Shown: one piece after another, positions 3,307 through 50,417 of the stretch | Layout of the letters: each line of letters begins with the position of its first letter | How positions within the stretch are numbered: the stretch's first letter is position 1 | The notes under the pieces: generated by a model | What the model was told of the DNA's origin: nothing | The model's database searches: none | The model's input: the letters and a program-made list of their open reading frames with translations, nothing else | Source of the DNA: a virus | Taxonomy: Duplodnaviria; Heunggongvirae; Uroviricota; Caudoviricetes | Length of the DNA stretch: 50,417 bases | Strand: one strand, 5' to 3' | Virus record (IMG/VR): IMGVR_UViG_2700989535_000003 | Program-made: the position numbers and the translations under genes

Positions 3307-3882
3307 CTACGGCAGTGCTGGCCATTCAATATCCTGTGCAGTTGATGTATCAACACGGTTCAGCAACACCCGATACTTTTTCCAGGCTTCCAGCAATGAG
3401 GTTTCTTCCTCCGTTGCGATTTCCAGATCTACAGCATCCTGAAGTGGCGCTATATGCTCACTGGCTACCTGCATCAGGCTGTTTTTTGTTTCTTCCGCCT
3501 CCCGAATCCGGAACAGTTTTTCTGCTTCCGTATCCTTCACCCAGACTGTACCGTTCCACTTCTGAAACTCCCCTTCCGGCGATAACCAGGTAACATTTTC
3601 CGGTAACGGACCGAGTTCAGAAATAAATAACGCGTCGCCGGAAGCCACGTCATAAACCATTTTACCCCGATGATCTTCAACGAGATGCCACGATGACTCA
3701 TCACTGTTGAAAACAGCCACGAAGCCAGCCGGAATATCTGGCGGTGCAATATCGGTACTGTTTGCTGGCAGACCTGTATGAGGCGGAATATATGCATCAC
3801 CTTCACCAATAAATTCATTAGTTCCGGCCAGCAGATTATAAATTTTTATGGTCCGTGGTTGTTCACTCATTCTGAATGCCAT
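3307..3882 (-). CDS. tfa: Tail fibre assembly protein Tfa
   Basis: 191 aa ORF immediately downstream of stf, start overlapping stf stop; lambda Tfa-like sequence. Confidence 0.85.
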
Positions 3883-28686: not shown

Positions 28687-28957
28687 AATGTTACCGTAAT
28701 ATGTGAGTATCCATCGACTAGACACTAAGCAAAAAAGCTCCCGAAGGAGCCTTCATTTTCACTTTCTTAAATCTAACGACAGATGGCTAACATTTAAGTA
28801 TTGTGAAATATTATCAAATGTAATCATCATTGATTTACAAAAGATACATTTTGCCCCGAAAGGATTTCTGTCAGAAACATCAAAAGATGATGTTCTATAC
28901 TGAGAACCATGGCAACACGGGCATCTAAAGTGAATATGGTTTGTAATATTTTCTACC

Positions 28958-29173
28958 TCAAAGTGCCACTACATGAACAGCTGCAGGGCCTTTAGGTCCG
29001 TTCTCAATACCAAATTCGACTTCCTGATTCTCAGTTAACGTTTTGAAATCGTTGCTCTGAATAGCTGAGAAATGCACAAACACATCTTTGCTACCATCTT
29101 TCGGCGTGATGAAACCAAAACCTTTTTCAGGGTTAAACCATTTCACTAAACCAGTCATTTTGTTAGACATCAT
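28958..29173 (-). CDS. cspI: Cold shock protein (CspA family)
   Basis: [38 protein letters not shown] - RNP1/RNP2 cold-shock domain motifs; 70-71 aa. Confidence 0.85.
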
Positions 29174-29533
29174 TATTACCTTTTGAAGAAGTTAGCCCTT
29201 GGGCAGAATGGTCCGAAAAAAAATATCAGAGAGAAAAACCAACAAGGAAATCTCAAGAGGTACAAATAATAAAATTATAACAATGACTGCTTCAGATAAT
29301 TTTGTAACAAACCAGAACACCATTAACGCATGATTAACCAACCATAGCAAGGATTACTTTTGTAAAGAAAAACACACGAATGAAACAATAGCTTTATTTA
29401 TTAATAAAACGTGTCATTCTGTCTAATGACCTTTTATCTTACCCTTAAGATTTCAAGGATTTTGACTCATGGAAGAGTCCTTTTTATTTAAATTTCACAT
29501 TCAGCGCTAAAAATAATCCGATTTAATATTAAT

Positions 29534-31279: not shown

Positions 31280-31993
31280 CTAAGAAAATCTTGATAAATA
31301 TTGGTGCGGAGGCACACCAAAATATCCTCTAAAAACACTTACAAAATATGATGCATTGTCATACCCGCATATTCCCGCCACCTTGCCGACAGTATGGTTA
31401 CTGTAGATCAATAATCTTTGCGCCATCATCATTCGTTCTTCAAGAATTAATTTACTAAACGATAATCCTTCGTCTTTTAATTTTCTTTTTAACAAACTCT
31501 CGCTCATATATAATCTTGAAGATATATCACAAAGTCTCCATGACGCTGAGATATCCGAGTGAATAATAGCCTTAACTTTACAACCTAAGCTATTAAGACT
31601 TCCGAACAAAAAACTTTGCACCATTTTCTCTGAAGATAAGACAGCAAGACATGCAAGTGATATTTGATTTCTAACTACATCCACGGTTTTGCTATCACAA
31701 TTCAAGCATGCAACCAAGTTCTTTAACAATGAAAAATCTTCACATTCTACTATCAAGTATGACGGATAAAACCTTCTTACAGAAAAAGGTGAGAGTGTGT
31801 AGTTTTTAAAGAAATCATTAACTGTTTTCTCCTCAACATCTACGATCATTAGATGATCTGTATTTGACGAAAAAAGATCTTTTAAATTGTATTCAATGAG
31901 GACAGCATTTCCTTTTTTAAACAAAATATCTTCTTTACCAATTCGGACACCAAACGAGTTCAACACCAAAATGATAGAACATATGTATGGCAT
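31280..31993 (-). CDS. AraC/XylS-family transcriptional regulator (moron)
   Basis: C-terminal AraC-type HTH (..LSFSKLILEERMMMAQRLL.., GICGYDNASYFVSVFRGYFGVPPHQY); ATG at 31993 preceded by AGGTGG; AT-rich. Confidence 0.8.
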   Translation of the reverse strand: MPYICSIILVLNSFGVRIGKEDILFKKGNAVLIEYNLKDLFSSNTDHLMIVDVEEKTVNDFFKNYTLSPFSVRRFYPSYLIVECEDFSLLKNLVACLNCDSKTVDVVRNQISLACLAVLSSEKMVQSFLFGSLNSLGCKVKAIIHSDISASWRLCDISSRLYMSESLLKRKLKDEGLSFSKLILEERMMMAQRLLIYSNHTVGKVAGICGYDNASYFVSVFRGYFGVPPHQYLSRFS

Positions 31994-32399
31994 ATTATCC
32001 ACCTGATATCATTGGGGTTACACCAGGTAAGTATAGGTGGAAAATCAATATTCGCCAGTTCAACAATAAGGAAAATCTCATTGCATCACAACTATAAAAC
32101 CATGTGTTTAACTCACAAAAAACAAATCATTAAACTAATCTGTTATATTATAATAGCTGCGTGCAATAATAATATTATATGCTCTTAATATTCACTTGAA
32201 ATATCTTCATATAAAAACAGATTGAATAAAATCTTTTGGGGCTGGTATGTTTACCAACATTAAATTGCATCTCAATGTTTTCTTTAGCGTGAACAGGATT
32301 TTTATAAAAACTGACACTATGAGCATCATAGCGTAGTTTTTACGATTGTAAATATCCTGCATACAGGAACTCATCACTTTCAGATGATATCGCATACAG

Positions 32400-33359
32400 T
32401 TAATTCACCATCAGTCTTAGAGCCAGTTCTTCCGGATAGGGATCGAAGTAATTCTGTGTAAGCAAGTAATCATTAGGATACTCACCCAGATAATGCTTCA
32501 GCAGAGTCAACGGCGCAAGAAGAGGCAATGTGCCAAAGCGATAGTTAAGTATAACCTCGCTCAACTCTTTACGCTGGCGTGTACTTAAGTAATTACTAAA
32601 ATACCCCTGTATATGCATCAGCACATTCGTGTGATTTTTACGTGATGCTGGTTTTCTGAGAATCGCCATCAGATTATCACGATACACCTCAAAGTATGAT
32701 TCAAGGTCCGCCCACTCGTGTATTGCAGCCACAAATGGTCCCATATCTTTATAGCCTGCCTGGCTATGCGCCAACAACTGAAGCTTATAACGACTATGAA
32801 AAGCTAATAACTCTCTTCTTGATAATTTCTCCTTGTAAAGGTGATTGAGCTCATGCAAAGCAAAAACTCTTTCAATAAAATTCTCACGAAGCACTGGATC
32901 ATGTAATCGCCCATCCTCTTCAACCGGTAGCCAGGAAAACTTTTCCATCAAAGTGCTCGTAAATAGTCCCACTCCATCTTTACGACCTCGATTACCATTT
33001 TCATCATAGACACGCACGCGCTCCATGCCACAGCTGGGAGATTTAGCACAAACCACAAACCCCGATACATCCTTTAATTTGTCCATATAAGAACGACTAA
33101 ACTCTGTCATTCTCTCTGTCACATCCTCATTCTGGTCGTGGCTGAAACACATCCGTATATTTCCTTGCTTCGAGCGCACAAGTCGTAGAGCAGGACGCGG
33201 AACTGGCAGCCCTATAGCCATTTCCGGACATACTGGTCTGAATGTTACCCATTCCACTAATTTGTCCATTAAAAAGTCATCTCTTTTGTGACCACCATCA
33301 AAACGAACAGCAGAACCACCCAAACAACCGCTGATCCCAATCACAGGTTTTTTTATCAT
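32400..33359 (-). CDS. DUF523 (TudS-like Fe-S thiouracil desulfidase fold) - DUF1722 fusion protein (YbgA-like C-terminus)
   Basis: 319 aa; Cys12, Cys44, Cys104 in motifs GISGCLGG / RPVCPE / VVCAKSPSCG match the 3-Cys cluster ligands recalled for DUF523; strong GGGGGAGGA SD. Confidence 0.65.
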   Translation of the reverse strand: MIKKPVIGISGCLGGSAVRFDGGHKRDDFLMDKLVEWVTFRPVCPEMAIGLPVPRPALRLVRSKQGNIRMCFSHDQNEDVTERMTEFSRSYMDKLKDVSGFVVCAKSPSCGMERVRVYDENGNRGRKDGVGLFTSTLMEKFSWLPVEEDGRLHDPVLRENFIERVFALHELNHLYKEKLSRRELLAFHSRYKLQLLAHSQAGYKDMGPFVAAIHEWADLESYFEVYRDNLMAILRKPASRKNHTNVLMHIQGYFSNYLSTRQRKELSEVILNYRFGTLPLLAPLTLLKHYLGEYPNDYLLTQNYFDPYPEELALRLMVN

Positions 33360-33551
33360 TTCCTCCCCCTTGACTAATTCATTAACACATAAACTTTGTA
33401 GTGCACGGACTAAATTGCCTTTCTGGCTTCATCACTGACAATTTTTCTGTTATTGACTATTCCTAATATAGTAGGAAAGTTCTTTAAGTGATCGGTCGTA
33501 CTCATCTATCTTTCATACTTACTCTCAACTATCAAAAGTACAGGATTTATT

Positions 33552-34076
33552 ATGAAGTTATGGCCTGTGTTGACTGGCATTGCACTCTCTTTCACTCTTA
33601 TAGCATGTAAGGCCCCGACACCACCTAAAGGTGTGCAGCCGATTACAAATTTTGACGCCAACCGCTACCTCGGAAAATGGTATGAAATAGCTCGCCTCGA
33701 GAACTGGTTCGAACGTGGTCTGGAACAGGTCAGCGCTACTTATGAAAAACGGAACGACGGAGGGATTCGCGTACTTAACCGTGGATACGATCCAACGAAA
33801 AACAAATGGAGCGAGAGCGAAGGTAAAGCATACTTTACTGGAGATACTAAAACTGCAGCGTTGAAAGTTTCGTTTTTTGGCCCCTTCTATGGTGGCTATA
33901 ATGTAATCAAACTGGATGATGAGTATAAGTATGCTCTTGTCAGTGGTCCGAACAGAGAATACCTATGGATTCTGGCAAGGACCCAAACTATTCCAGATAA
34001 TGTAAAAGCAGACTATGTGCGTACCGCTCAAAAGTTGGGATTCAATGTCAATGAACTATTATGGGTTAAACAATAA
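33552..34076 (+). CDS. Bacterial lipocalin (Blc-like outer membrane lipoprotein)
   Basis: 174 aa; lipoprotein signal with LIAC lipobox; NFDANRYLGKWYEIARL lipocalin motif; ..FFGPFYGGYNVI.. very similar to E. coli Blc. Confidence 0.85.
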   Translation: MKLWPVLTGIALSFTLIACKAPTPPKGVQPITNFDANRYLGKWYEIARLENWFERGLEQVSATYEKRNDGGIRVLNRGYDPTKNKWSESEGKAYFTGDTKTAALKVSFFGPFYGGYNVIKLDDEYKYALVSGPNREYLWILARTQTIPDNVKADYVRTAQKLGFNVNELLWVKQ

Positions 34077-38375: not shown

Positions 38376-39967
38376 AGGCTATTTACCATAACGCCTCATT
38401 ACGCGCACCGCCCAGACTGACTCAGCGCGTTTCTGGCATATCCCCAGTAAAACAAGTAACAAACCACCCGAAAATGAACACCAGAAACGCGACTTAAGAA
38501 TCTACCCTATGAATGGATATGCACTCAACCGAATCGATCTTGGTTTCAATCTTTTTTATCGGGATCAGGCTTCTTTTTAGGTAACTTCGGGGGCTTAACT
38601 TGCTGATGACTTTGCGTTCGGCGCGTAAGCCAGGGATGGTCAGCTTTAGGTTTAACATAGTATTTTGAGCGTAAATCAATACGGGCATTATCCACTCGTT
38701 CATGGACACTCTTTTCATCATCCAGTGGTATAGGCTCCGGGCCATCAACATACTTTTCCCAGCCCAGCGCTTTCCCGTCATACAGAACGTTAATTTCACC
38801 GTCAAAGTTCTCGCATACAGTAACAACCGAATGCCTAAGTCGATATCCCCGGCTCTCACTGCGTACCTGAAACGCACTGCTTTTGTACTGGAAAGTGAGA
38901 TTTTTAGACAGAACGCGCTTCGCCTGTAGGCTGAAGATATAACCCAGTTCCTCTTCAGAATGGTGCACATCAAGATGAGCATTATCAGTAGTACGAGGCG
39001 ACGTAGCGAACCGGTTGTTATAGGCTTCAATAAAGGTCGGCAACCATGCATTTGCTGTTTCAATATCACTGATATTCTGAAGCCGCATTTCTTTGACCAG
39101 CCTGTCCTGTAGTGTCTGATTGGCGCGCTCTACCCGCCCTTTTGCCTGCGGGCTGTTGGCATGGATTGGCTCGATGCCCAGTGTCTTTATCGCACGAGTG
39201 AACTGGGTCAGCTCACCTTCCCGCTCTGGGTTATTTACCCTGAATATACTGTGTCTATCAGAGTAGAGAGCGAGCGGTACGCCATGATCATTAAGGTAAC
39301 CCCGGAGGGTTTCCATGTAAGCCCGGGTTGTTTCAGCAGGCACAAAACGCAACGCCATCAACGCACTGGTGGCATCATCAATGAAAACGATCAGTGTACA
39401 TCTGGGGCCTCGATTTTCAAACCAGTCATGAGGTGAGCCATCAATCTGGATCAGTTCACCGTAAGATGGTCGTCGCATGCGGCGTTGATATATACGGGCA
39501 ATTTTACGACGGCGTTCACGCCATAACCCCTCTTCTATCATCCACTTTCTGAGAGTTTCAACGGATAAAGATAAACCGTGTATCTCGCGCAATTTTTCGC
39601 ACGCAAACGTAGGTCCAAAATCAGCGTAACGGCTTTTGAGGAGTGAAATTACTGTTGCTCTGAATTCAGTAGAAAAGGAATTATTAGGACGCTTTCCACG
39701 TCGGTGGGAAACCAGACCAGAAGGCCCTTCATTTCTATACCGTTGCACCAGACGTTTAACCTGCCGAATAGAAATGCCAATGCGTGCCGCAGCTTGTTCC
39801 TGAGTAATATGTCGATTAATTGACTCCTGAATAATCTGAAGTCGGTGGAGTTCCTTATGACTCATCGTAACAGTCTCTTTGATCATGAAAAATCCCCCAG
39901 AGAATTGTCTGGGGACATTTTAGAATGGTTCAAAGGGGACATTACAGCTTGGTGTTAACAAATAGCC
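38376..39967. mobile_element. Candidate insertion sequence (about 1.6 kb) with imperfect terminal inverted repeats
   Basis: Left AGGCTATTTACCATAACGCC (38376..38395) vs reverse complement of right end GGTGTTAACAAATAGCCT (39950..39967): 9 identical outer bases then about 6/8; encloses the DDE transposase. Boundaries approximate; no target-site duplication verified. Confidence 0.4.
38546..39886 (-). CDS. DDE transposase (N-terminal HTH + rve/integrase-core domain; IS481/ISNCY-like, family unresolved)
   Basis: 446 aa; HTH (ITQEQAAARIGISIRQVKRLVQRY) and integrase-core region with D..D..E-type spacing (QIDGSPHDWF..., LYSDRHSIF..., KGRVERANQTLQD). Confidence 0.75.
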   Translation of the reverse strand: MIKETVTMSHKELHRLQIIQESINRHITQEQAAARIGISIRQVKRLVQRYRNEGPSGLVSHRRGKRPNNSFSTEFRATVISLLKSRYADFGPTFACEKLREIHGLSLSVETLRKWMIEEGLWRERRRKIARIYQRRMRRPSYGELIQIDGSPHDWFENRGPRCTLIVFIDDATSALMALRFVPAETTRAYMETLRGYLNDHGVPLALYSDRHSIFRVNNPEREGELTQFTRAIKTLGIEPIHANSPQAKGRVERANQTLQDRLVKEMRLQNISDIETANAWLPTFIEAYNNRFATSPRTTDNAHLDVHHSEEELGYIFSLQAKRVLSKNLTFQYKSSAFQVRSESRGYRLRHSVVTVCENFDGEINVLYDGKALGWEKYVDGPEPIPLDDEKSVHERVDNARIDLRSKYYVKPKADHPWLTRRTQSHQQVKPPKLPKKKPDPDKKD

Positions 39968-40145
39968 TGCTTCTCCTTGCCTTTCGGCACGTAAGAGGCT
40001 AACCTACATGTGTCTAGCATGAAATTGGCCTCAGATTAATGTTAAGCGTCTTGCAGGACGCGTAATGTTAACTGGGGCTTTTCTCTATCTGCCGTTGGTG
40101 TTCATGCCCGAGGCAGATAGCCTCAAGCACCCGCAGCAATTTTAC

Positions 40146-40423: not shown

Positions 40424-41455
40424 CTACCAATTGATGAAGTCAGTGATGTTATCCAACATGGTTACAGTAACTTCCCGTCCTAACAAATATTGCCAGTATG
40501 CCTCACGGTCATTTTGTTCACCTGCACCGCTCCACTCAATTACTCTTAAATGCTTAGAGGTTAGGTAAGGCCGAATAAGCAGGTTAAGGTGTTCATCGAG
40601 GCCAGAATAACCAAACAGTATTATTTCTTCTGATTCAAATAATGCAAACTGCAAATAATCCCAGTACGTAGAAAGAACATTAGATGCTGCTATAACTGAC
40701 GGTTTCCTTTTTATATGCGTTAACACTATATGTTCGCTAGGCTCATCCCTGTCAACCGTAAGTTGAGAACGTGAAAGTTTTAAGACGGTCTCACCCTGAT
40801 TAACAAATAGTGGTGAGCCATGCAAATGCAAATAATAACCAAACCTACGATTATATTTCCGTTCGAGCGCTTCGGCGGAAAATCCGTGGCCTAACATCCC
40901 ATCAACCAGATACCCATCATACCCGCTGAATATATCATTATCTATGAATGAGTTGTATAATAATTTGTCATAGTTTAATGTCGCAATATGAGTGCGTGTA
41001 TTTTTTACAAATTCCACTAGCGCATTTTCGAATCTTTGCGGCAACCCTTCACCGTAATTATGCAAACTAGTTGCAACTTTGTGGATATAAGTGGCGGTGA
41101 TTTCGGGGAAGTTTAGTCCATCGTCAGTAAGCCAATGCTCGTTTCCTTCTCCAATTTGCGCAAGAGCCTTACAATATGTGATAGCTTGGTGAAGGGTATC
41201 CAACTCATGTTCCCCTGCCGGTGGACCTTGCCGCTGAAGACAACGTTCGATAAGTTGCTTATGGACATCGTTTAAGAAATTGGATCGATGCCAAATTTCT
41301 GCCAACGCCCTGTCTAAGGAAAAATGAGCAGGATCTAAAGCCATACCAAGACCGTTGCCGAATATTATTAATTTTCGTGCCATATAGGAGGACTCATGTT
41401 GGAATAATCTTGAGTAGCGTAACGCGATACGCCGCAGTTTGGAAGTAATATACAT
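40424..41455 (-). CDS. SIR2-like (SIR2_2-type) protein, candidate NAD+-consuming defence effector
   Basis: 343 aa; motifs IIFGNGLGMALDP (Gly loop), IATLNYDKLLY (TTNYD-like), YLHLHGSPLF (His motif), ILFGYSGLDEH; AT-rich context. Start may be the internal ATG at 41383. Confidence 0.55.
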   Translation of the reverse strand: MYITSKLRRIALRYSRLFQHESSYMARKLIIFGNGLGMALDPAHFSLDRALAEIWHRSNFLNDVHKQLIERCLQRQGPPAGEHELDTLHQAITYCKALAQIGEGNEHWLTDDGLNFPEITATYIHKVATSLHNYGEGLPQRFENALVEFVKNTRTHIATLNYDKLLYNSFIDNDIFSGYDGYLVDGMLGHGFSAEALERKYNRRFGYYLHLHGSPLFVNQGETVLKLSRSQLTVDRDEPSEHIVLTHIKRKPSVIAASNVLSTYWDYLQFALFESEEIILFGYSGLDEHLNLLIRPYLTSKHLRVIEWSGAGEQNDREAYWQYLLGREVTVTMLDNITDFINW

Positions 41456-43953: not shown

Positions 43954-43969
43954 ATTGAGTTTTCTCAAT
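43954..43969. promoter_or_regulatory. Operator palindrome in dicC-dicA intergenic region
   Basis: Perfect inverted repeat ATTGAG-TTTT-CTCAAT between divergent dicC and dicA starts. Confidence 0.5.
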
Positions 43970-44018
43970 GCTAATCACTCAAGGAATCTCAAGTCAAGGG
44001 TTATTAAGATATCTAAAT

Positions 44019-44426
44019 ATGAACGAGAAAACTTTAGGTCAACGCATTAGAGAAAGACGTAAGCAGGTAGGCTTAAGTCAAAACGGTTTAAGCAAAGCTG
44101 CTGGCGTATCTGGCTCATCAATTTCATTATGGGAAAGTGACCATACAGCCCCGCGCGGGCAAAATTTGCATCGCCTCGCCGAGGTATTGCAATGTTCACC
44201 AACCTGGATACTGTTTGGCGACGAGGACAAAACACCAGCTCCCCCTGTTTCACTCGATAGTGCCTTAGACTTATCGGAAGATGAGTTAGAGATGCTGCGT
44301 TTGTATCGCGCACTTCCTAAATCAGAGCAACAAGCACAACTCAGCGAACTCCGCGCCCGCGTTGAGAATTTTAATCGCCTGTTCACCGAGCTATTAGAGG
44401 CTCGCAAACGCAACAAGCATCAATAA
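44019..44426 (+). CDS. dicA: CI-like repressor DicA (XRE-family HTH)
   Basis: 135 aa from ATG 44019: MNEKTLGQRIRERRKQVGLSQNGLSKAAGVSGSSISLWE...LQCSPTWILFGDEDK... similar to recalled DicA. Confidence 0.8.
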   Translation: MNEKTLGQRIRERRKQVGLSQNGLSKAAGVSGSSISLWESDHTAPRGQNLHRLAEVLQCSPTWILFGDEDKTPAPPVSLDSALDLSEDELEMLRLYRALPKSEQQAQLSELRARVENFNRLFTELLEARKRNKHQ

Positions 44427-44488
44427 TCATCCCTTCACAAAATTTTAAAGCCTTACATTTCAATGTATTGGCTTTATCTTGCGCCAAT

Positions 44489-44504
44489 ACTTGAGTTTTC
44501 TCAT
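44489..44504. promoter_or_regulatory. Second operator-like palindrome upstream of the dicB operon
   Basis: ACTTGAGTTTTCTCAT, 14/16 identical to the dicC-dicA operator; between dicA stop and ydfA start. Confidence 0.45.
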
Positions 44505-44618
44505 CAAAAAACCTTGACGAAAAATAATGAGAAAACTAAATTACCTCCATCAAGACACCGCACGGTGTTCTCAGCAAACAGTTCCGCTACCCCGGCGTTA
44601 AGGGGAAATGAGGTCAGC

Positions 44619-44774
44619 ATGGATACTATCGATCTTGGCAACAACGAATCTCTGGTGTACGGCGTGTTTCCAAACCAGGACGGCACGTTCACCGCAATGA
44701 CGTATACCAAAAGCAAAACGTTTAAAACCGAAAATGGTGCCCGTCGCTGGCTGGAAAGAAACTCAGGTGAGTGA
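44619..44774 (+). CDS. ydfA: YdfA (51 aa), first gene of the dicB operon
   Basis: MDTIDLGNNESLVYGVFPNQDGTFTAMTYTKSKTFKTENGARRWLERNSGE; AGGGGAAATGAGG SD. Confidence 0.6.
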   Translation: MDTIDLGNNESLVYGVFPNQDGTFTAMTYTKSKTFKTENGARRWLERNSGE

Positions 44775-44775
44775 T

Positions 44776-45351
44776 ATGGATTTCGACACAATCATGGAAA
44801 AGGCTTACGAAGAATACTTCGAAGGCCTTGCCGAAGGCGAAGAAGCTCTCAGCTTCAGTGAGTTTAAACAGGCACTCAGAATAAGAATGTGCTCTCACAA
44901 TGACGCGGAGCACAAATATGAGAAGCAAAATCAGACCGCAGAAAATTTTGTTCTGGAACCCGGAGAAACGCTTTTCAAAATTCCCGTTACGTGCCCCATT
45001 TGCGGTTTTACATCAGAAGAACTTGACGACTCCTGTAACAATCAGGAAACAACCAAGTATGTCGAAGATGATACCGAGTGCGCACGAAGAACGATTATAT
45101 CCACAAGTCCAAACTCCAGGACCAATAAATCTCACTTTGAGAGGGTGATTAATCCACTCCCCCAAACCAATAAAAAAGATGCCGGAGGACAAAAAACCCA
45201 ATGGAACAACGGGATATCTGTCAAAAAAAGACGTTCCATTAAAGACAAACAACGCAGCGCCAACAACTGTAAGCGCTTTATACCAGTAATCAATTTTCAT
45301 GTTCTTAAGCGGATTTATTGGTGGTTGCGACATTGCTTAATGAATCCTTAA
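44776..45351 (+). CDS. Hypothetical ORF at the ydfB position (191 aa as read; conserved part may be only the N-terminal ~42 aa)
   Basis: ATG 1 nt after ydfA stop (coupled); N-terminus MDFDTIMEKAYEEYFEGLAEGEE..; C-terminal two thirds low-complexity and overlapped by an opposite-strand ORF. Confidence 0.35.
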   Translation: MDFDTIMEKAYEEYFEGLAEGEEALSFSEFKQALRIRMCSHNDAEHKYEKQNQTAENFVLEPGETLFKIPVTCPICGFTSEELDDSCNNQETTKYVEDDTECARRTIISTSPNSRTNKSHFERVINPLPQTNKKDAGGQKTQWNNGISVKKRRSIKDKQRSANNCKRFIPVINFHVLKRIYWWLRHCLMNP

Positions 45352-45610: not shown

Positions 45611-45668
45611 TTTCTGGTGACGTTTGGCGGTATCAGTTTTACTCCGTGACTGCTCTGCCGCCGTTTTT
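45611..45668 (+). ncRNA. dicF: DicF small regulatory RNA
   Basis: TTTCTGGTGACGTTTGGCGGTATCAGTTTTACTCCGTGACTGCTCTGCCGCC followed by TTTTT matches the recalled 53-nt DicF sequence (1 difference near the 3' end); located between the ydfC-like ORF and dicB. Confidence 0.6.
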
Positions 45669-45837: not shown

Positions 45838-46026
45838 ATGAAAACGTTATTACCAAACGTTAATACGTCTGAAGGTTGTTTTGAAATTGGTGTCACTATC
45901 AGTAACCCTGTATTTACTGAAGATGCCATTAACAAGAGAAAACAAGAACGGGAGCTATTAAATAAAATATGCATTGTTTCAATGCTGGCTCGTTTACGTC
46001 TGATGCCAAAAGGATGTGCACAATGA
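45838..46026 (+). CDS. dicB: Cell division inhibitor DicB
   Basis: 62 aa MKTLLPNVNTSEGCFEIGVTISNPVFTEDAINKRKQERELLNKICIVSMLARLRLMPKGCAQ; GAGGA SD. Confidence 0.8.
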   Translation: MKTLLPNVNTSEGCFEIGVTISNPVFTEDAINKRKQERELLNKICIVSMLARLRLMPKGCAQ

Positions 46027-46214
46027 ATTCAGCATTTGCGCTTGTTCTGACAGTTTTTCTTGTTTCCGGAGAGCCAGTTGATATTGCAGTCAGTGTTCAC
46101 AGGACAATGCAGGAGTGTATGACTGCAGCAACCGAACAGAAAATTCCCGGTAACTGTTACCCGGTCGATAAAGTTATTCACCAGGATAATAACGAAATCC
46201 CGGCAGGTCTTTAA
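46023..46214 (+). CDS. ydfD: YdfD (small membrane lysis-associated protein)
   Basis: 63 aa MNSAFALVLTVFLVSGEPVDIAVSVHRTMQECMTAATEQKIPGNCYPVDKVIHQDNNEIPAGL; start overlaps dicB stop (ATGA). Confidence 0.65.
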   Translation: MNSAFALVLTVFLVSGEPVDIAVSVHRTMQECMTAATEQKIPGNCYPVDKVIHQDNNEIPAGL

Positions 46215-46306
46215 AACAGTTCCGTAATAAACATCCGATTTCATTCTTATATGCCAGCAATGGCAGGGATTTGTTCACCCTTAAATCTGTAATGAGGTAA
46301 AACAAA

Positions 46307-48778
46307 ATGAGTAAAGTCTTTATTTGCGCCGCCATTCCGGACGAACAGGCAATAAAGGAAGAAGGTGCCGTCGCTGTAGCCACTGCCATTGAAGCCGGTG
46401 ATGAACGTCGCGCCCGCGCAAAATTTCACTGGCAATTCCTGGAACATTATCCGGCTGCTCAGGACTGCGCTTATAAATTTCTTGTTTGCGAGGATAAACC
46501 CGGTATACCCCGCCCTGCCCTCGATTCCTGGGATGCTGAATATATGCAGGAAAACCGCTGGGATGAGGCGTCTGCTTCCTTTGTCCCGGTCGAGACTGAA
46601 TCCGATCCGATGAACGTCACTTTTGACAACCTAGCCCCTGAAGTACAGAACGCTGTCATGGTTAAGTTCGACACATGTGAAAACATCACTGTTGATATGG
46701 TGATTAGCGCACAGGAATTGTTGCAGGAAGACATGGCAACATTCGACGGCCATATCGTTGAAGCGTTGATGAAAATGCCAGAAGTTAACGCTATGTATCC
46801 GGAGCTTAAGCTGCATGCCATCGGGTGGGTTAAGCATAAATGTAAGCCTGGTGCCAAATGGCCCGAAATTCAGGCAGAGATGCGCATCTGGAAAAAACGT
46901 CGCGAAGGTGAACGCAAGGAAGCCGGAAAATACACGTCTGTTGTTGATCTCGCCCGCGCCAGAGCCAATCAACAGCACACTGAAAATTCAACAGGAAAAA
47001 TCAACCCGGTCATTGCTGCCATTCATCGCGAATACAAGCAGACATGGAAAACACTGGATGACGAACTGGCCTACGCTCTCTGGCCTGGTGATGTGGATGC
47101 CGGAAACATTGACGGCAGCATCCATCGCTGGGCAAAAAATGAAGTTATCGACAACGACCGCGAAGACTGGAAGCGTATCTCGGCATCAATGCGCAAACAG
47201 CCTGATGCCCTTCGCTACGACCGCCAGACTATTTTTGGCCTTGTCCGTGAACGTCCGATCGACATTCACAAAGACCCTGTGGCACTGAACAAATACATTA
47301 CTGAATACCTGACTACAAAGGGCGTGTTTGAAGATGAAGGAACAAATCAGAGCGCAACTGATACTCTCTCGTCGCCAGTACCAGAAACTGATGCAGTGGA
47401 AACGGCAATTCCAGACAACGAAAAAACCGAATGCAAAGTGGAAGTCGAACCATCTGTAGAACGTGAGGGGCCGTTCTACTTCCTCTTCACCGACAAGGAT
47501 GGCGAAAAATACGGTCGCGCAAATAAACTTTCTGGTCTGGATAAGGCGCTGTCTGCTGGGGCTACTGAAATCACGAAAGAAGAATATTTCGCCCGCAAAA
47601 ACGGTACATACTCAGGTTCACAACAAAATACTGGTGCATCTGACACGACCGCACAACCAGGGTCAGTAAAAGTTACCGCTGACGAAGTAAACAAAATTAT
47701 GCAGGCAGCCAATATCAGCCAGCCTGACGCCGATGAACTGCTTGCAGTATCACGTGGTGAATTTGTTGAAGGGATTAGCGACCCGAATGATCCGAAATGG
47801 ATTAAGGGGATCCAGACCCGCGATTCTGTGAACCAGAACCAGCAAGAAACGGAACAGAACGACCAGAAAGCGGAACAAAACAGCCCAAATACGCAACAAA
47901 ACGAGCCAGAAACGAAACAACCTGAACCAGTAGTGCAACAGGAACCGGAAAAGATCTGCACCGCCTGCGGTCAGAGCGGTGGCGGCAACTGCCCTGATTG
48001 TGGTGCGGTGATGGGTGACGCAACATACCAGGAAATATTCGATGGAGAGAATCAGCCTGAAGTTCAGGAAAATGATCCGGAGGAAATGGAAGGCACTGCG
48101 CATCAGCACAAGGAGAACACTGGCGGCAATCAGCATCATGCCAGCGATAGTGAAACTGGCGAGGCGTCAGATCCCTTAATTAAGGCAAACGGTCATCATA
48201 ATCTCACATCCACCAGCAGAGCGGGGATTCATCTGATGATCGACCTTGAAACCATGGGAAAAAATCCCGATGCCCCGATTATCTCAATAGGTGCAATATT
48301 TTTCGATCCGCAAACCGGAGATATGGGACCGGAATTTAGTAAGACTATCGATCTGGAAACTGCTGGCGGAGTCATTGATCGGGACACCATTAAATGGTGG
48401 CTTAAACAATCACGCGAAGCGCAATCTGCCATTATGACCGATGAAATCCCGTTAGATGATGCACTGTTACAATTGCGGGAATTTATCGACGAAAACTCCG
48501 GTGAATTTTTTGTTCATGTCTGGGGAAATGGAGCCAACTTCGACAACACGATTTTGCGCCGTTCATACGAACGGCAGGGGATCCCCTGCCCGTGGCGTTA
48601 CTACAACGATCGCGATGTACGCACAATCGTTGAGCTGGGGAAAGCCATAGACTTCGATGCCAGAACGGCTATTCCATTCGAAGGTGAGCGCCATAATGCA
48701 CTTGATGACGCCCGTTACCAGGCAAAATACGTTTCAGCTATCTGGCAAAAACTGATCCCGAGTCAGGCTGATTCTTAA
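46307..48778 (+). CDS. YdfE-like large early protein with C-terminal DEDDh-type 3'-5' exonuclease domain
   Basis: 823 aa; C-terminal LMIDLETMG...HVWGNGANFDNTIL...HNALDDARYQAKY (Exo I/II/III-like motifs); central Q/E/N-rich linker and CxxC-N8-CxxC zinc ribbon; occupies the exo position of the lambdoid map. Confidence 0.65.
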   Translation: MSKVFICAAIPDEQAIKEEGAVAVATAIEAGDERRARAKFHWQFLEHYPAAQDCAYKFLVCEDKPGIPRPALDSWDAEYMQENRWDEASASFVPVETESDPMNVTFDNLAPEVQNAVMVKFDTCENITVDMVISAQELLQEDMATFDGHIVEALMKMPEVNAMYPELKLHAIGWVKHKCKPGAKWPEIQAEMRIWKKRREGERKEAGKYTSVVDLARARANQQHTENSTGKINPVIAAIHREYKQTWKTLDDELAYALWPGDVDAGNIDGSIHRWAKNEVIDNDREDWKRISASMRKQPDALRYDRQTIFGLVRERPIDIHKDPVALNKYITEYLTTKGVFEDEGTNQSATDTLSSPVPETDAVETAIPDNEKTECKVEVEPSVEREGPFYFLFTDKDGEKYGRANKLSGLDKALSAGATEITKEEYFARKNGTYSGSQQNTGASDTTAQPGSVKVTADEVNKIMQAANISQPDADELLAVSRGEFVEGISDPNDPKWIKGIQTRDSVNQNQQETEQNDQKAEQNSPNTQQNEPETKQPEPVVQQEPEKICTACGQSGGGNCPDCGAVMGDATYQEIFDGENQPEVQENDPEEMEGTAHQHKENTGGNQHHASDSETGEASDPLIKANGHHNLTSTSRAGIHLMIDLETMGKNPDAPIISIGAIFFDPQTGDMGPEFSKTIDLETAGGVIDRDTIKWWLKQSREAQSAIMTDEIPLDDALLQLREFIDENSGEFFVHVWGNGANFDNTILRRSYERQGIPCPWRYYNDRDVRTIVELGKAIDFDARTAIPFEGERHNALDDARYQAKYVSAIWQKLIPSQADS

Positions 48779-48850: not shown

Positions 48851-49102
48851 ATGAGCGAAGTAATCATGATTGTCTCTCCCGGCAAATGGGTATCCGAAGA
48901 GCAGTTAATTGCGCTGAAAGGAATAAAAAAAGGTACGTTAAAAAAGGCCCGGGAAAAATCGTTTATGGAAGGAAGGGAATATAAGCATGTCGCTCATGAC
49001 GGTATGCCATGGGATAACAGTCCATGCTTTTACAACCTGGAAGAAATTGATCGCTGGATTGAGCGCCAGGCATCAGCAAGACCAAGACGTCATCTTACTT
49101 GA
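48851..49102 (+). CDS. xis: Excisionase-like protein (Xis)
   Basis: 83 aa directly upstream of int; GREY motif region resembling lambdoid excisionases. Confidence 0.55.
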   Translation: MSEVIMIVSPGKWVSEEQLIALKGIKKGTLKKAREKSFMEGREYKHVAHDGMPWDNSPCFYNLEEIDRWIERQASARPRRHLT

Positions 49103-49121: not shown

Positions 49122-50417
49122 ATGAGAGAAGTTGAAATGAAATATCCGACAGGCGTGGAAAACCATGGAGGGAAATTACGTATCTGGTTTGTTTATAAAG
49201 GCGTAAGAGTCAGGGAAAACCTGGGGGTTCCTGACACAGCAAAAAACAGGCGCGTTGCAGGTGAGCTACGCGCCTCTGTTTGTTACGCAATAAAAACTGG
49301 TGTTTTCGACTATGCAAAACAGTTTCCCTCCTCACGCAATCTGGAAAAATTTGGTGAGGCCCGACAAGATTTAACCATAAAAGAACTGGCTGAAAAATTT
49401 CTGGCACTGAAAGAAACTGAAGTCGCAAAAACATCACTCAACACATACCGTGCCGTCATCAAAAATATCCTGAGCATAATCGGTGAAAAAAATCTTGCCT
49501 CATCGATTAATAAAGAAAAATTACTGGAGGTTCGTAAAGAGCTACTGACTGGATACCAGATCCCCAAAAGTAACTATATTGTTACACAACCAGGGAGATC
49601 GGCTGTAACTGTAAATAATTACATGACAAATCTTAACGCCGTGTTCCAGTTTGGTGTTGATAACGGTTACCTGGCAGATAACCCGTTTAAGGGGATCTCG
49701 CCATTAAAGGAATCAAGAACCATTCCGGATCCTCTTTCGCGGGAGGAATTCATCCGTCTTATCGATGCGTGCAGAAATCAGCAAGCCAAAAATTTATGGT
49801 GTGTTTCTGTTTATACTGGCGTTCGCCCTGGTGAGCTGTGTGCACTTGGATGGGAGGACATAGATCTGAAAAATGGAACAATGATGATCAGGAGAAATTT
49901 AGCAAAAGACCGTTTCACGGTCCCAAAAACACAGGCGGGAACCAATCGGGTCATTCATCTTATTAAGCCAGCAATCGACGCTCTCCGGAGTCAGATGACA
50001 TTAACGAGACTGAGCAAAGAGCATATCATTGATGTTCACCTCAGAGAGTATGGCAGAACAGAAAAACATAAATGCACCTTTGTTTTTCAACCTGAAGTGT
50101 CAGCGAGAGTAAAAAATTATGGTGACCATTTTACCGTTGACTCAATAAGGCAGATGTGGGACGCAGCGATAAAACGTGCCGGACTCCGCCATCGAAAATC
50201 ATATCAGTCGAGACATACTTATGCCTGCTGGTCGCTGACAGCTGGTGCTAACCCGGCATTTATAGCAAACCAGATGGGCCATGCAGATGCGCAAATGGTA
50301 TTTCAGGTATACGGAAAATGGATGTCTGAAAACAATAATGCACAGGTAGCTTTGTTAAATACACAGTTAAGCGAGTTTGCCCCAACCATGCCCCATAACG
50401 AAGCAATGAAAAATTAA
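49122..50417 (+). CDS. int: Tyrosine-type site-specific integrase
   Basis: 431 aa; C-terminal catalytic region with R..H..R..Y signature (..RHTYACWSL.., ..MGHADAQMVFQVYGKW..); at the prophage edge. Confidence 0.9.
   Translation: MREVEMKYPTGVENHGGKLRIWFVYKGVRVRENLGVPDTAKNRRVAGELRASVCYAIKTGVFDYAKQFPSSRNLEKFGEARQDLTIKELAEKFLALKETEVAKTSLNTYRAVIKNILSIIGEKNLASSINKEKLLEVRKELLTGYQIPKSNYIVTQPGRSAVTVNNYMTNLNAVFQFGVDNGYLADNPFKGISPLKESRTIPDPLSREEFIRLIDACRNQQAKNLWCVSVYTGVRPGELCALGWEDIDLKNGTMMIRRNLAKDRFTVPKTQAGTNRVIHLIKPAIDALRSQMTLTRLSKEHIIDVHLREYGRTEKHKCTFVFQPEVSARVKNYGDHFTVDSIRQMWDAAIKRAGLRHRKSYQSRHTYACWSLTAGANPAFIANQMGHADAQMVFQVYGKWMSENNNAQVALLNTQLSEFAPTMPHNEAMKN

Follow-up and report, generated by a model that had tools for sequence, protein, structure and literature searches.

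An intact ydfE-type prophage gene predicted to join a RecE-type scaffold to a DexA-like 3'-5' exonuclease domain

Within a Qin/mEp460-type lambdoid prophage, an intact ydfE-type 'exonuclease' gene (46307..48778 on the plus strand, as are all features given below) encodes an 823-amino-acid early protein that appears, from sequence comparison, to be a RecE-type scaffold in which the 5'-3' PD-(D/E)XK nuclease has been replaced by a predicted DexA-like 3'-5' exonuclease. This reading follows from homology to RecE in the N-terminal part combined with a DexA-like domain at the C-terminus. The architecture, a complete catalytic pentad, the junction of the swap, purifying selection and a position in the operon free of any annealase were all established by the analysis. 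The window, meaning the whole 50,417-nucleotide stretch that was analysed, carries the gene as an uninterrupted frame of 823 codons plus stop, opening with ATG and bearing none of the internal stops that would mark a disrupted frame, just as the original prediction had it. A Shine-Dalgarno-like GAGG (46294..46297) lies 9 nt 5' of the ATG; an internal start at M644, which would release a free nuclease domain, was considered and rejected, with no more than a weak GGGG upstream of it. A scan for promoters and terminators around the gene returned sites no more numerous than in shuffled sequence. At the nucleotide level the gene is 99.8% identical to its counterpart in phage mEp460_ev081 and 100% identical to that of E. 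coli strain 1190. RefSeq, PHROGs and Pfam already contain annotations of the protein: a phrog_2082 match spans its whole length, and many copies bear the RefSeq name '3'-5' exoribonuclease domain-containing protein'. Literature searches covering ydfE, exoD/DLP12 and Rv2179c turned up no functional work on the protein.

Domain architecture and the junction with RecE

The protein begins with a head of two domains, an alpha/beta domain D1 (aa 1-100; 46307..46606) and a helical domain D2 (aa 105-226; 46619..46984), so that aa 1-~226 probably correspond to the recent Pfam families YdfE_N (PF27430) and YdfE_C (PF27432) respectively, an assignment made through precomputed hits on proteins 95-97% identical over aa 1-260. 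AF2 places two confident domains within this region, and D2 evolves under a dN/dS of about 0.14 around the conserved motifs FxGHIVEAL, MYPE and KWPEI. In other phages the same head bears a RecE-type nuclease, a Rad52-like-fold domain or a domain of about 190 aa with no assigned family. One sibling domain, 'P0240_C', resembles Rad52/Mgm101 by fold comparison only; by sequence it matched nothing in Pfam, PDB phmmer or PDB profile searches.

Behind the head, a helical domain D3 (aa 245-340; 47039..47326; AF2 pLDDT >90), where homology to RecE starts, is followed by a disordered acidic linker (aa 345-387; 47339..47467; pLDDT <50, dN/dS 0.3-0.7) and by a mini-domain D4 of beta-beta-alpha-beta-alpha topology (aa 388-432; 47468..47602; pLDDT >90), which has a dN/dS of 0.03-0.19 and a GPFY motif present in all four architecture classes. 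Within the disordered region beyond D4 lies a conserved peptide, RGEFVEGISDPNDPKW (aa 483-498; 47753..47800), shared by RecE and by members of each of the four classes; its consensus is RGEFVxGISDPxDPKW in the scaffold and RGEFVxGISDPNDPKW in RecE. The structure prediction originally proposed for the N-terminal region thus yielded confident domains, and the accompanying view that the first 600 residues hold no recognisable motifs has to be abandoned, given YdfE_N/YdfE_C and the homology to RecE over aa 262-625.

A zinc-ribbon-like Cys4 motif, CTAC-N7-CPDC (C551-x2-C554-x7-C562-x2-C565; aa 551-565; 47957..48001), has its equivalent in K-12 RecE as CNAC-N7-CPDC, with identity to RecE reaching about 80% around it. 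The four cysteines of the zinc ribbon first read from the sequence are therefore real, but their central spacing is seven residues and not the eight first given. Purifying selection acts on aa 546-570 (dN/dS 0.06-0.25); the Pfam double zinc ribbon (DZR) model matches weakly (E 0.13), and most head-bearing relatives are without the motif. An acidic low-complexity linker recognised by composition (aa 571-640; 48017..48226; dN/dS 0.66-0.98) completes the scaffold. Enrichment in Q, E, N and D extends over aa 460-640 as a whole, a region whose net charge is about -23; this bears out the acidic Q/E/N-rich linker of the original prediction.

Residues 262-625 are homologous to Rac RecE 278-591 (BLASTP E 5e-61), and the NCBIfam exoVIII model NF007259 matches over positions 270-603 (E 4e-81), although at 273.4 bits against a cut-off of 1269 the protein falls short of a RecE equivalog. 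The alignment stops at query residue 625 and RecE residue 591; at the nucleotide level, identity to recE is about 76% over nt 1425-1874 and homology stops at nt 1874. The domain-swap junction lies at aa ~625, where homology to RecE ends. Beyond it, the RecE PD-(D/E)XK nuclease gave no PF12684 match in the protein, and RecE 592-866 gave no phmmer or tblastn match in the protein or in the window. The likeness to Rac RecE consists of a large protein of the early-left operon, a homologous non-catalytic region, the Cys4 motif and an acidic linker. The differences are threefold: firstly, the catalytic domain of RecE is a 5'-3' PD-(D/E)XK nuclease (PF12684-type; RecE 564/606-866); secondly, the RecE gene is followed by recT, whereas the present gene is without an annealase partner; thirdly, RecE 1-225 bears no relation to the opening ~260 aa of the present protein (YdfE_N/YdfE_C). 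PF06630, the N-terminal domain of RecE itself, is even found in some alleles of the present gene.

What stands in place of the RecE nuclease is a predicted DEDDh 3'-5' exonuclease domain (aa 642-813; 48230..48745). It matches PF16473 (Rv2179c-like) at 224.5 bits against a cut-off of 27 (E 9.8e-67) over model positions 2-177 of 177, with the PF00929 RNase_T score slightly under its own cut-off. When the domain is aligned with T4 DexA and with stand-alone homologues, the catalytic residues D646, E648, D746, H796 and D801 do not vary; the residues of Exo I (DxE), Exo II (D) and Exo III (Hx4D) are thus all present. The domain has a dN/dS of 0.15-0.18. The DEDDh exonuclease first read from motifs in the last ~190 residues is thereby upheld by the domain search. 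In the PDB, T4 DexA (8kel) was the sole match (sequence search E 6e-6, profile search E 6e-15), with nothing else retrieved by either search at E<=0.1. DexA (8KEL/8KEN) belongs to the same DEDDh family and has identical catalytic residues, but it shares 26% identity, is a stand-alone protein of 227 aa, has extra loops and comes from a lytic phage with modified DNA. Rv2179c of Mycobacterium tuberculosis, namesake of PF16473 and a member of the same Pfam family, is judged a more distant relative than DexA because the PDB profile did not retrieve it at E<=0.1. DNA is favoured over RNA as the likely substrate only because the closest solved relative is DexA. Lambda Exo (Red-alpha, of the YqaJ family) is likewise a nuclease of the lambdoid early-left operon, but is of another fold family and opposite polarity: it gave only a chance-level tblastn match (E 0.25) and there was no Pfam YqaJ match, in keeping with the original description of a large early-left-operon protein from a different nuclease family.

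Prophage setting, distribution and selection

The gene is the last of a DicF-dicB-ydfD operon under a DicA-type repressor, immediately before xis-int. The leftward early region opens with a gene for a DicA/CI-type HTH repressor (43968..44426; PHROG transcriptional repressor matches), and dicA occupies the corresponding position in both strain 1190 and K-12. The small RNA DicF (45612..45663; Rfam RF00039, 72.5 bits against a gathering score of 48) lies 650 nt upstream of the gene on the same strand; directly upstream are a dicB-like gene (45838-46026) and a ydfD-like gene (46023-46214), matched as a pair by phrog_1251/phrog_1092, and the dicB-ydfD-exonuclease spacing is identical in strain 1190. 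An excisionase (48851-49102) lies directly downstream and is followed by a tyrosine integrase (49122-50417), both by PHROG matches. No RecT, Bet, Erf or Rad52-like sequence was found in the window. The original comparison with the 'exo position' of lambda thus stands as far as the early-left operon is concerned, but not in its detail: the gene is the last before xis-int and the prophage has no annealase, whereas lambda Exo has Bet as its partner. Homologues of the exonuclease domain that stand alone are likewise found in this slot before xis-int.

The original statement that the gene is a pseudogene in K-12 proved correct. K-12 ydfE (b1577, Qin) is the same gene, likewise located after dicB-ydfD; its aa 1-256 are 96% identical, and IS2E cuts it after about codon 256, so that everything beyond, the nuclease included, is missing. 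DLP12 exoD was considered as the K-12 pseudogene in question and set aside, being unrelated and without a tblastn match. Of complete E. coli genomes, about 65% have a place that covers at least 80% of the gene. Among 80 IMG/VR loci, a set made up only of near-identical E. coli-type copies, 68 copies are not cut by a contig end; 62 of these are intact at 823-830 aa and the other six are shortened. Inducible phages with the gene include mEp460, Tritos, Evi, HannyBb and PhiR42_1. Across the protein, the folded domains show dN/dS values of 0.03-0.19 and the linkers values of 0.3-1.2. A chance open reading frame is rejected because of this contrast and because most IMG/VR copies are intact.

The same data bear on whether the gene is a decaying, functionless prophage remnant, as in K-12. 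It has been inactivated there (IS2), in an O157 strain (IS1203), in PPompW_EH1846 (frameshift) and in 6/68 IMG/VR copies; against this, it is intact here and in 62/68 of those copies, the catalytic pentad is whole, every folded domain has a dN/dS of 0.03-0.19 and the gene is found in inducible phages. Selection and intactness thus go most of the way to refuting this reading, which is highly improbable.

Proposed function and its rivals

The role in recombination or anti-defence suggested at the outset is plausible. The best explanation overall, to which we give about an even chance, is a modular early protein in which a scaffold-tethered 3'-5' exonuclease trims DNA 3' ends. Upon induction, the gene would be transcribed together with DicF-dicB-ydfD from a leftward promoter repressed by the DicA-type protein. 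The C-terminal domain would then take nucleotides off DNA 3' ends by two-metal-ion hydrolysis, while the scaffold would tether the nuclease to the partner or DNA structure (broken ends or recombination intermediates) that also anchors the RecE-type nuclease or Rad52-like annealase of sibling phages. Its job would be to trim 3' ends or 3' tails during recombination-dependent replication or repair of the phage, working with host functions and not with a phage annealase. Trimming is proposed as the most likely job because a 3'-5' nuclease is presumed to be tethered to recombination intermediates.

The main rival is defence against phages with modified DNA, in which the protein would act as a superinfection-exclusion nuclease of 'HREX' type, digesting the 5hmC-type DNA of invading T-even phages and so protecting the lysogen or induced cell. 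Published experiments on E. coli homologues of DexA offer a single lead, and it points this way: Kang et al. 2025 (PMC12153337) report that EcD, such a homologue, digests T4 DNA but not unmodified dsDNA, and that when carried on a plasmid it protects against T4. The closest solved relative of the present domain is DexA, the gene is carried by prophages and is extremely frequent in E. coli, dicB, which protects against some phages, lies directly upstream on the same strand, and one stand-alone homologue of the domain adjoins a DndB-like gene. EcD and the present protein are both E. coli-encoded DEDDh exonucleases of the DexA family. Yet EcD is a different, short protein with primer-encoded ends MIDTET...TIPETYD (compared by its termini and reported residues alone) and with no scaffold described; a scan of genome contigs for EcD with the primer sequences gave no match for the 23-mer and, for the 20-mer, one chance match in an Acetatifactor MAG. 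Of the DexA residues reported as necessary for 5hmC recognition, W152 aligns with Y766, at a position that varies between W, Y, A and V among homologues, and D169 aligns with Ala; neither is thus conserved, a result that must be taken as tentative, since at 26% identity the alignment of loop positions is uncertain. DexA D90, a tetramerisation residue replaced by Ala in the dimer-only EcD (PMC12153337), is retained as D718. The gene sits in a repressor-controlled early operon and should therefore be silent in a stable lysogen; PADLOC returned only a generic DEDDh match (E 1e-5); and the scaffold is one common to recombination enzymes. On this balance an exclusion nuclease is unlikely, if still a serious contender.

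An exoribonuclease like Rv2179c, trimming RNA 3' ends such as those of the DicF precursor or of host RNAs at induction, seems improbable. Rv2179c has been reported as an exoribonuclease, the best Pfam family is named '3'-5' exoribonuclease Rv2179c-like' and the RefSeq name of many copies agrees, and DicF, which is processed from a longer transcript, lies close upstream on the same strand. In the PDB searches, however, the only match at E<=0.1 is a DNA exonuclease, DexA (E 6e-15), maturation of DicF is attributed to other enzymes, namely RNase E and RNase III, and the scaffold is shared with enzymes of DNA recombination. Still less probable is an anti-defence enzyme that destroys a host immune nucleic acid (retron msDNA, a DNA or RNA signal, or 3' ends that a defence system uses), with the scaffold as decoy or inhibitor. 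The case for it is circumstantial: the gene is an early phage gene, phage exonucleases including RecE interact with retron msDNA, and large acidic disordered regions could mimic nucleic acid; scans of Pfam, PHROG and PADLOC nevertheless gave no known anti-defence homologue.

Implications for phage DNA-end proteins

The gene is among the commonest prophage genes of E. coli, and, as it is already annotated, the value of the present analysis lies in the comparison of architectures rather than in finding a gene that is new. We put forward tentatively, and at longer odds than the trimming function, that the YdfE/RecE-type N-terminal region is a portable targeting module, a single conserved head (YdfE_N/YdfE_C, helical domain, GPFY mini-domain and RGEFVxGISDPxDPKW peptide) through which interchangeable effectors are brought to a common host or DNA partner. 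Its effectors would comprise a 5'-3' PD-(D/E)XK nuclease, a 3'-5' DEDDh nuclease, a Rad52-like annealase and the domain of about 190 aa, and the module would define a superfamily of modular phage DNA-end proteins that has yet to be described. The N-terminal part of RecE improves linear-linear recombineering; a portable module, if true, would give this part a function, as one that phages pair with nucleases of either polarity or with a Rad52-like-fold domain, and would make the 823-aa protein a polarity-reversed RecE. Should the protein instead exclude other phages as a DexA-like nuclease, it would represent a prophage-encoded defence of very wide distribution. The comparison of architectures provides a concrete handle on the partner of the module and may aid the engineering of recombineering tools.

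The gene and its nuclease domain

The gene (46307..48778, +) is a single ATG-start open reading frame of 823 codons with no internal stops and a GAGG located 9 nt 5' of the ATG. Of 80 IMG/VR loci sharing an almost identical head, 62 keep an intact frame (823–830 aa) and six have a shortened one; contig ends truncate the remaining 12. It is under selection, purifying on every folded part, with dN/dS against the Evi and Tritos alleles of 0.03–0.19 in folded domains, 0.06–0.25 around the putative zinc motif and 0.3–1.2 in linkers. Between alleles, neighbouring segments differ sharply in dS, the pattern that recombination at the linkers would produce.

The C-terminal DEDDh domain proposed in the original prediction was recovered by a Pfam search as PF16473 ('3'-5' exoribonuclease Rv2179c-like') at aa 642–813 (224.5 bits against a cut-off of 27, E 9.8e-67), with the generic RNase_T model scoring slightly under threshold. 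The catalytic centre is complete: D646 and E648 correspond to Exo I, D746 to Exo II, and H796 and D801 to Exo III, and none of the five varies when the domain is aligned with T4 DexA and five stand-alone homologues. A phmmer search of the PDB matched T4 DexA alone (8kel, E 5.7e-6), and a profile of 12 homologues again found DexA (E 6e-15) and no other PDB entry at E ≤ 0.1. As DexA was the only match in both searches, the nearest characterised relative is, judged by similarity, a DNA 3'-5' exonuclease rather than the RNase after which the Pfam family is named. Stand-alone versions of 183–190 aa, at ~60% identity, occur in Escherichia, Salmonella, Klebsiella, Enterobacter and Kluyvera. In a Salmonella prophage (L013:4743-6570), a 189-aa version lies directly upstream of xis-int, in the same slot as the fused gene; it is preceded by DndB-like, DUF2303 and YfdP genes, the DndB-like gene immediately before it. 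With the intact frame, the selection and the surviving copies, this domain bears out the original prediction in all but one detail of the linker. The low-complexity acidic stretch is present (aa 460–640, Q/E/N/D-rich, net charge ~-23), as are both CxxC pairs, C551-x2-C554-x7-C562-x2-C565, but the pairs are separated by seven residues and not the eight proposed.

A RecE-like scaffold shared across a modular family

The N-terminal 600 residues, in which the original prediction recognised no motifs, are identifiable through RecE homology and two Pfam families. Positions 270–603 of the NCBIfam RecE model (exodeoxyribonuclease VIII) match aa 245–626 at E 4e-81, the whole-protein score of 273 bits being below the cut-off of 1269, and BLASTP against K-12 RecE aligns residues 262–625 with RecE 278–591 (E 5e-61). 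Identity rises to ~80% from aa 470 onward, covering the peptide RGEFV(E/D)GISDPNDPKW, the Cys4 motif and the acidic linker. Similarity ends just short of the crystallised RecE nuclease domain (residues 606–866), and extends about 27 residues into the genetically defined one, placed at residues 564–866 in a 2023 review. At the DNA level, the gene is 76% identical to recE over nt 1425–1874 and unrelated beyond. These alignments show a RecE-type scaffold with a swap junction at aa ~625: where K-12 RecE carries a PDDEXK nuclease, the same scaffold here carries a DEDDh nuclease of predicted opposite polarity. Two recent Pfam families, YdfE_N and YdfE_C, are assigned to aa 1–260 via precomputed hits for near-identical proteins. 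AlphaFold2, run on aa 1–460 only with a 22-sequence alignment (mean pLDDT 83.5), predicts four confident domains: D1 (aa 1–100, alpha/beta), D2 (aa 105–226, helical), D3 (aa 245–340, helical) and D4 (aa 388–432, beta-beta-alpha-beta-alpha, with a GPFY motif), with disordered linkers at 207–211, 226–236, 345–382 and 439–460.

An exhaustive phmmer search with aa 1–260 against 1.84 billion cluster representatives gave 103 matches, and modules were mapped in the 39 representatives that reach 450 aa, backed by Pfam scans. Among these, the YdfE-type head precedes at least four architectures. The commonest (20 representatives) carries a ~285-aa tail, here P0240_C; nine (P0241, P0304, P0305, P0311, P0313, P0314, P0318, P0323 and P0333) carry a ~190-aa tail, P0241_C; four have the DEDDh tail; and four (P0267, P0299, P0301 and the fragment P0320) have a RecE-type PDDEXK tail, PF12684. 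A fifth DEDDh protein, P0324, bears RecE's own PF06630 head together with no more than the final ~44 residues of the YdfE region. P0241_C conserves the motifs SGRTxxM and LTYxQQLTxAAxxGxCANP; it matches no Pfam family and, among PHROGs, only the functionally unassigned phrog_26058. In P0240 (L008:5001-7337), the head is joined to a domain predicted to fold like the annealases RAD52 and Mgm101; the gene follows KilR and a Gam-like gene and precedes Sipho_Gp157, xis and int. The 'exonuclease' label that PHROGs give the P0240 family seems to have been carried over because of the head it shares. Phage 689R5 has a RecE_N-headed allele, 91% nucleotide identical to recE at its 5' end and 93.6% identical to the window gene over its last 1.1 kb. 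The Cys4 motif is restricted to E. coli RecE and the ydfE group; the GPFY mini-domain and the peptide RGE[FY][VI]xGISDPxDPKW occur in all four classes. The latter (aa 483–498; window 47753-47800) falls in a disordered region and, being found at differing positions in RecE and all four classes, behaves like a short linear interaction motif.

Prophage setting and distribution

The window spans an entire Qin-site prophage, running from a ydfJ-like transporter (1-1284) to the integrase. The former, a 427-aa MFS protein on the minus strand with the length and position of K-12 ydfJ, is host flank, which places the left prophage end between 1284 and about 2600. At the other end, a plus-strand series comprises a DicA/CI-type repressor (43968-44426), two small ORFs (44463-44774 and 44734-45351), the DicF sRNA (45612-45663; Rfam, 72.5 bits), dicB-like (45838-46026) and ydfD-like (46023-46214) genes, the 823-aa gene, xis (48851-49102) and int (49122-50417). 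The presence of DicF with dicB-like and ydfD-like genes makes this a complete dicBF-type cell-division-inhibition operon in an intact prophage. The 823-aa gene itself has an early-operon location ahead of xis-int. The second small ORF (205 aa) matches phrog_35040, of unknown function, and has a CPICG motif; opposite it lies a 106-aa hydrophobic ORF (45013-45333, -) with no family match. Since a scan between the repressor-to-int genes found no promoter or terminator signal above chance, their co-transcription is plausible. Searches of the 50-kb window by tblastn and phmmer found no lambda Exo, Bet or Gam, no P22 Erf, Abc1 or Abc2, and no RecT, RecE nuclease domain or Rad52-like domain; nor is an annealase annotated in related phages. 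The protein thus stands alone, an orphan rather than one partner of a two-component recombinase.

Elsewhere in the window, a 343-aa SIR2-like ORF (40424-41455, -) adjoins a hok/sok module (sok RNA 39961-40132, -) at a moron position occupied by an FRG-domain gene in mEp460 and strain 1190; weak PADLOC matches to Aga_SIR2 and PDC-S21 make it a possible prophage-borne defence gene. The early-right region carries an inserted 446-aa transposase-like ORF (38546-39886, -; HTH domains and rve_3 integrase core). Between a DUF968 (ydfU-like) gene and the lysis region lies a non-phage-like cluster (31280-34076) of an AraC-type regulator (31280-32002, -), a 2-thiouracil desulfurase/DUF1722 protein (32400-33359, -) and a lipocalin (33552-34076, +). 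Rfam also identified a cspA-type thermoregulator leader in the late region (28912-29328, -; 110 bits) and an IS009 RNA within the tail-fibre-assembly region (3341-3539, -; 226 bits).

Among phages, the gene matches the 'exodeoxyribonuclease' of mEp460_ev081 at 99.8% nucleotide identity and its counterparts in other inducible E. coli phages (Tritos, HannyBb, PhiR42_1, Evi and the PPompW phages) at 91–96%. Some match occurs in 4,785 of 5,426 complete E. coli genomes, and at least 80% of the gene is covered at one place in 3,534. The K-12 copy is a pseudogene, as the original prediction stated: in MG1655 it is ydfE (b1577), after dicB-ydfD and cut by IS2E, with 96% identity by tblastn over aa 1–256 only. 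DLP12 exoD, considered as the K-12 counterpart, is unrelated.

Possible roles

Because its scaffold is found with recombination enzymes, the favoured view is that the protein acts during lytic growth at broken DNA ends or recombination intermediates, where it would trim 3' ends or tails. By analogy with DexA, two-metal-ion hydrolysis would proceed from DNA 3' ends; a DicA-type-repressed promoter would drive expression on induction, and the scaffold would tether the nuclease to a partner or DNA structure common to RecE and the sibling Rad52-like annealases. The whole statement we regard as about evenly balanced, with much higher confidence in the architecture and less in the physiological role, the weak points of which are a 'wrong' polarity for single-strand annealing and the absent annealase. 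Defence of the type described for HREX, the bacterial DexA homologues, is rather unlikely: Kang et al. 2025 (PMC12153337) report digestion of T4 DNA and protection of cells by the short E. coli homologue EcD, but the termini encoded in its cloning primers mark it as a different protein, DexA W152 and D169 tentatively align (at 26% identity) with Y766 and Ala (D90 is kept as D718), the gene should be repressed in lysogens and the PADLOC match is only to generic DEDDh. That the enzyme is an RNase for DicF or other RNAs, as the Pfam family name and the nearness of DicF suggest, is improbable given that the closest solved relative is DexA. The case for an anti-defence role is purely circumstantial, and we consider it less probable still. 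That the gene is a decaying remnant is very improbable, as, whilst independent inactivations occur, selection and intactness contradict it.

Public databases already list the gene, its nuclease domain and its N-terminal domains under consistent names ('exonuclease', '3'-5' exonuclease' and '3'-5' exoribonuclease domain-containing protein' in RefSeq; an end-to-end match to PHROG 2082, 'exonuclease'), so the object itself is not new. The literature searched held no description of a RecE scaffold with its nuclease exchanged for one of opposite polarity, or of the same head bearing a Rad52-like annealase-fold domain. Whilst ordinary as a sequence feature, this uncharacterised gene has a full-length copy in roughly two in three complete E. 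coli genomes and is of moderate interest as a way into what the unexplained RecE N-terminus does.
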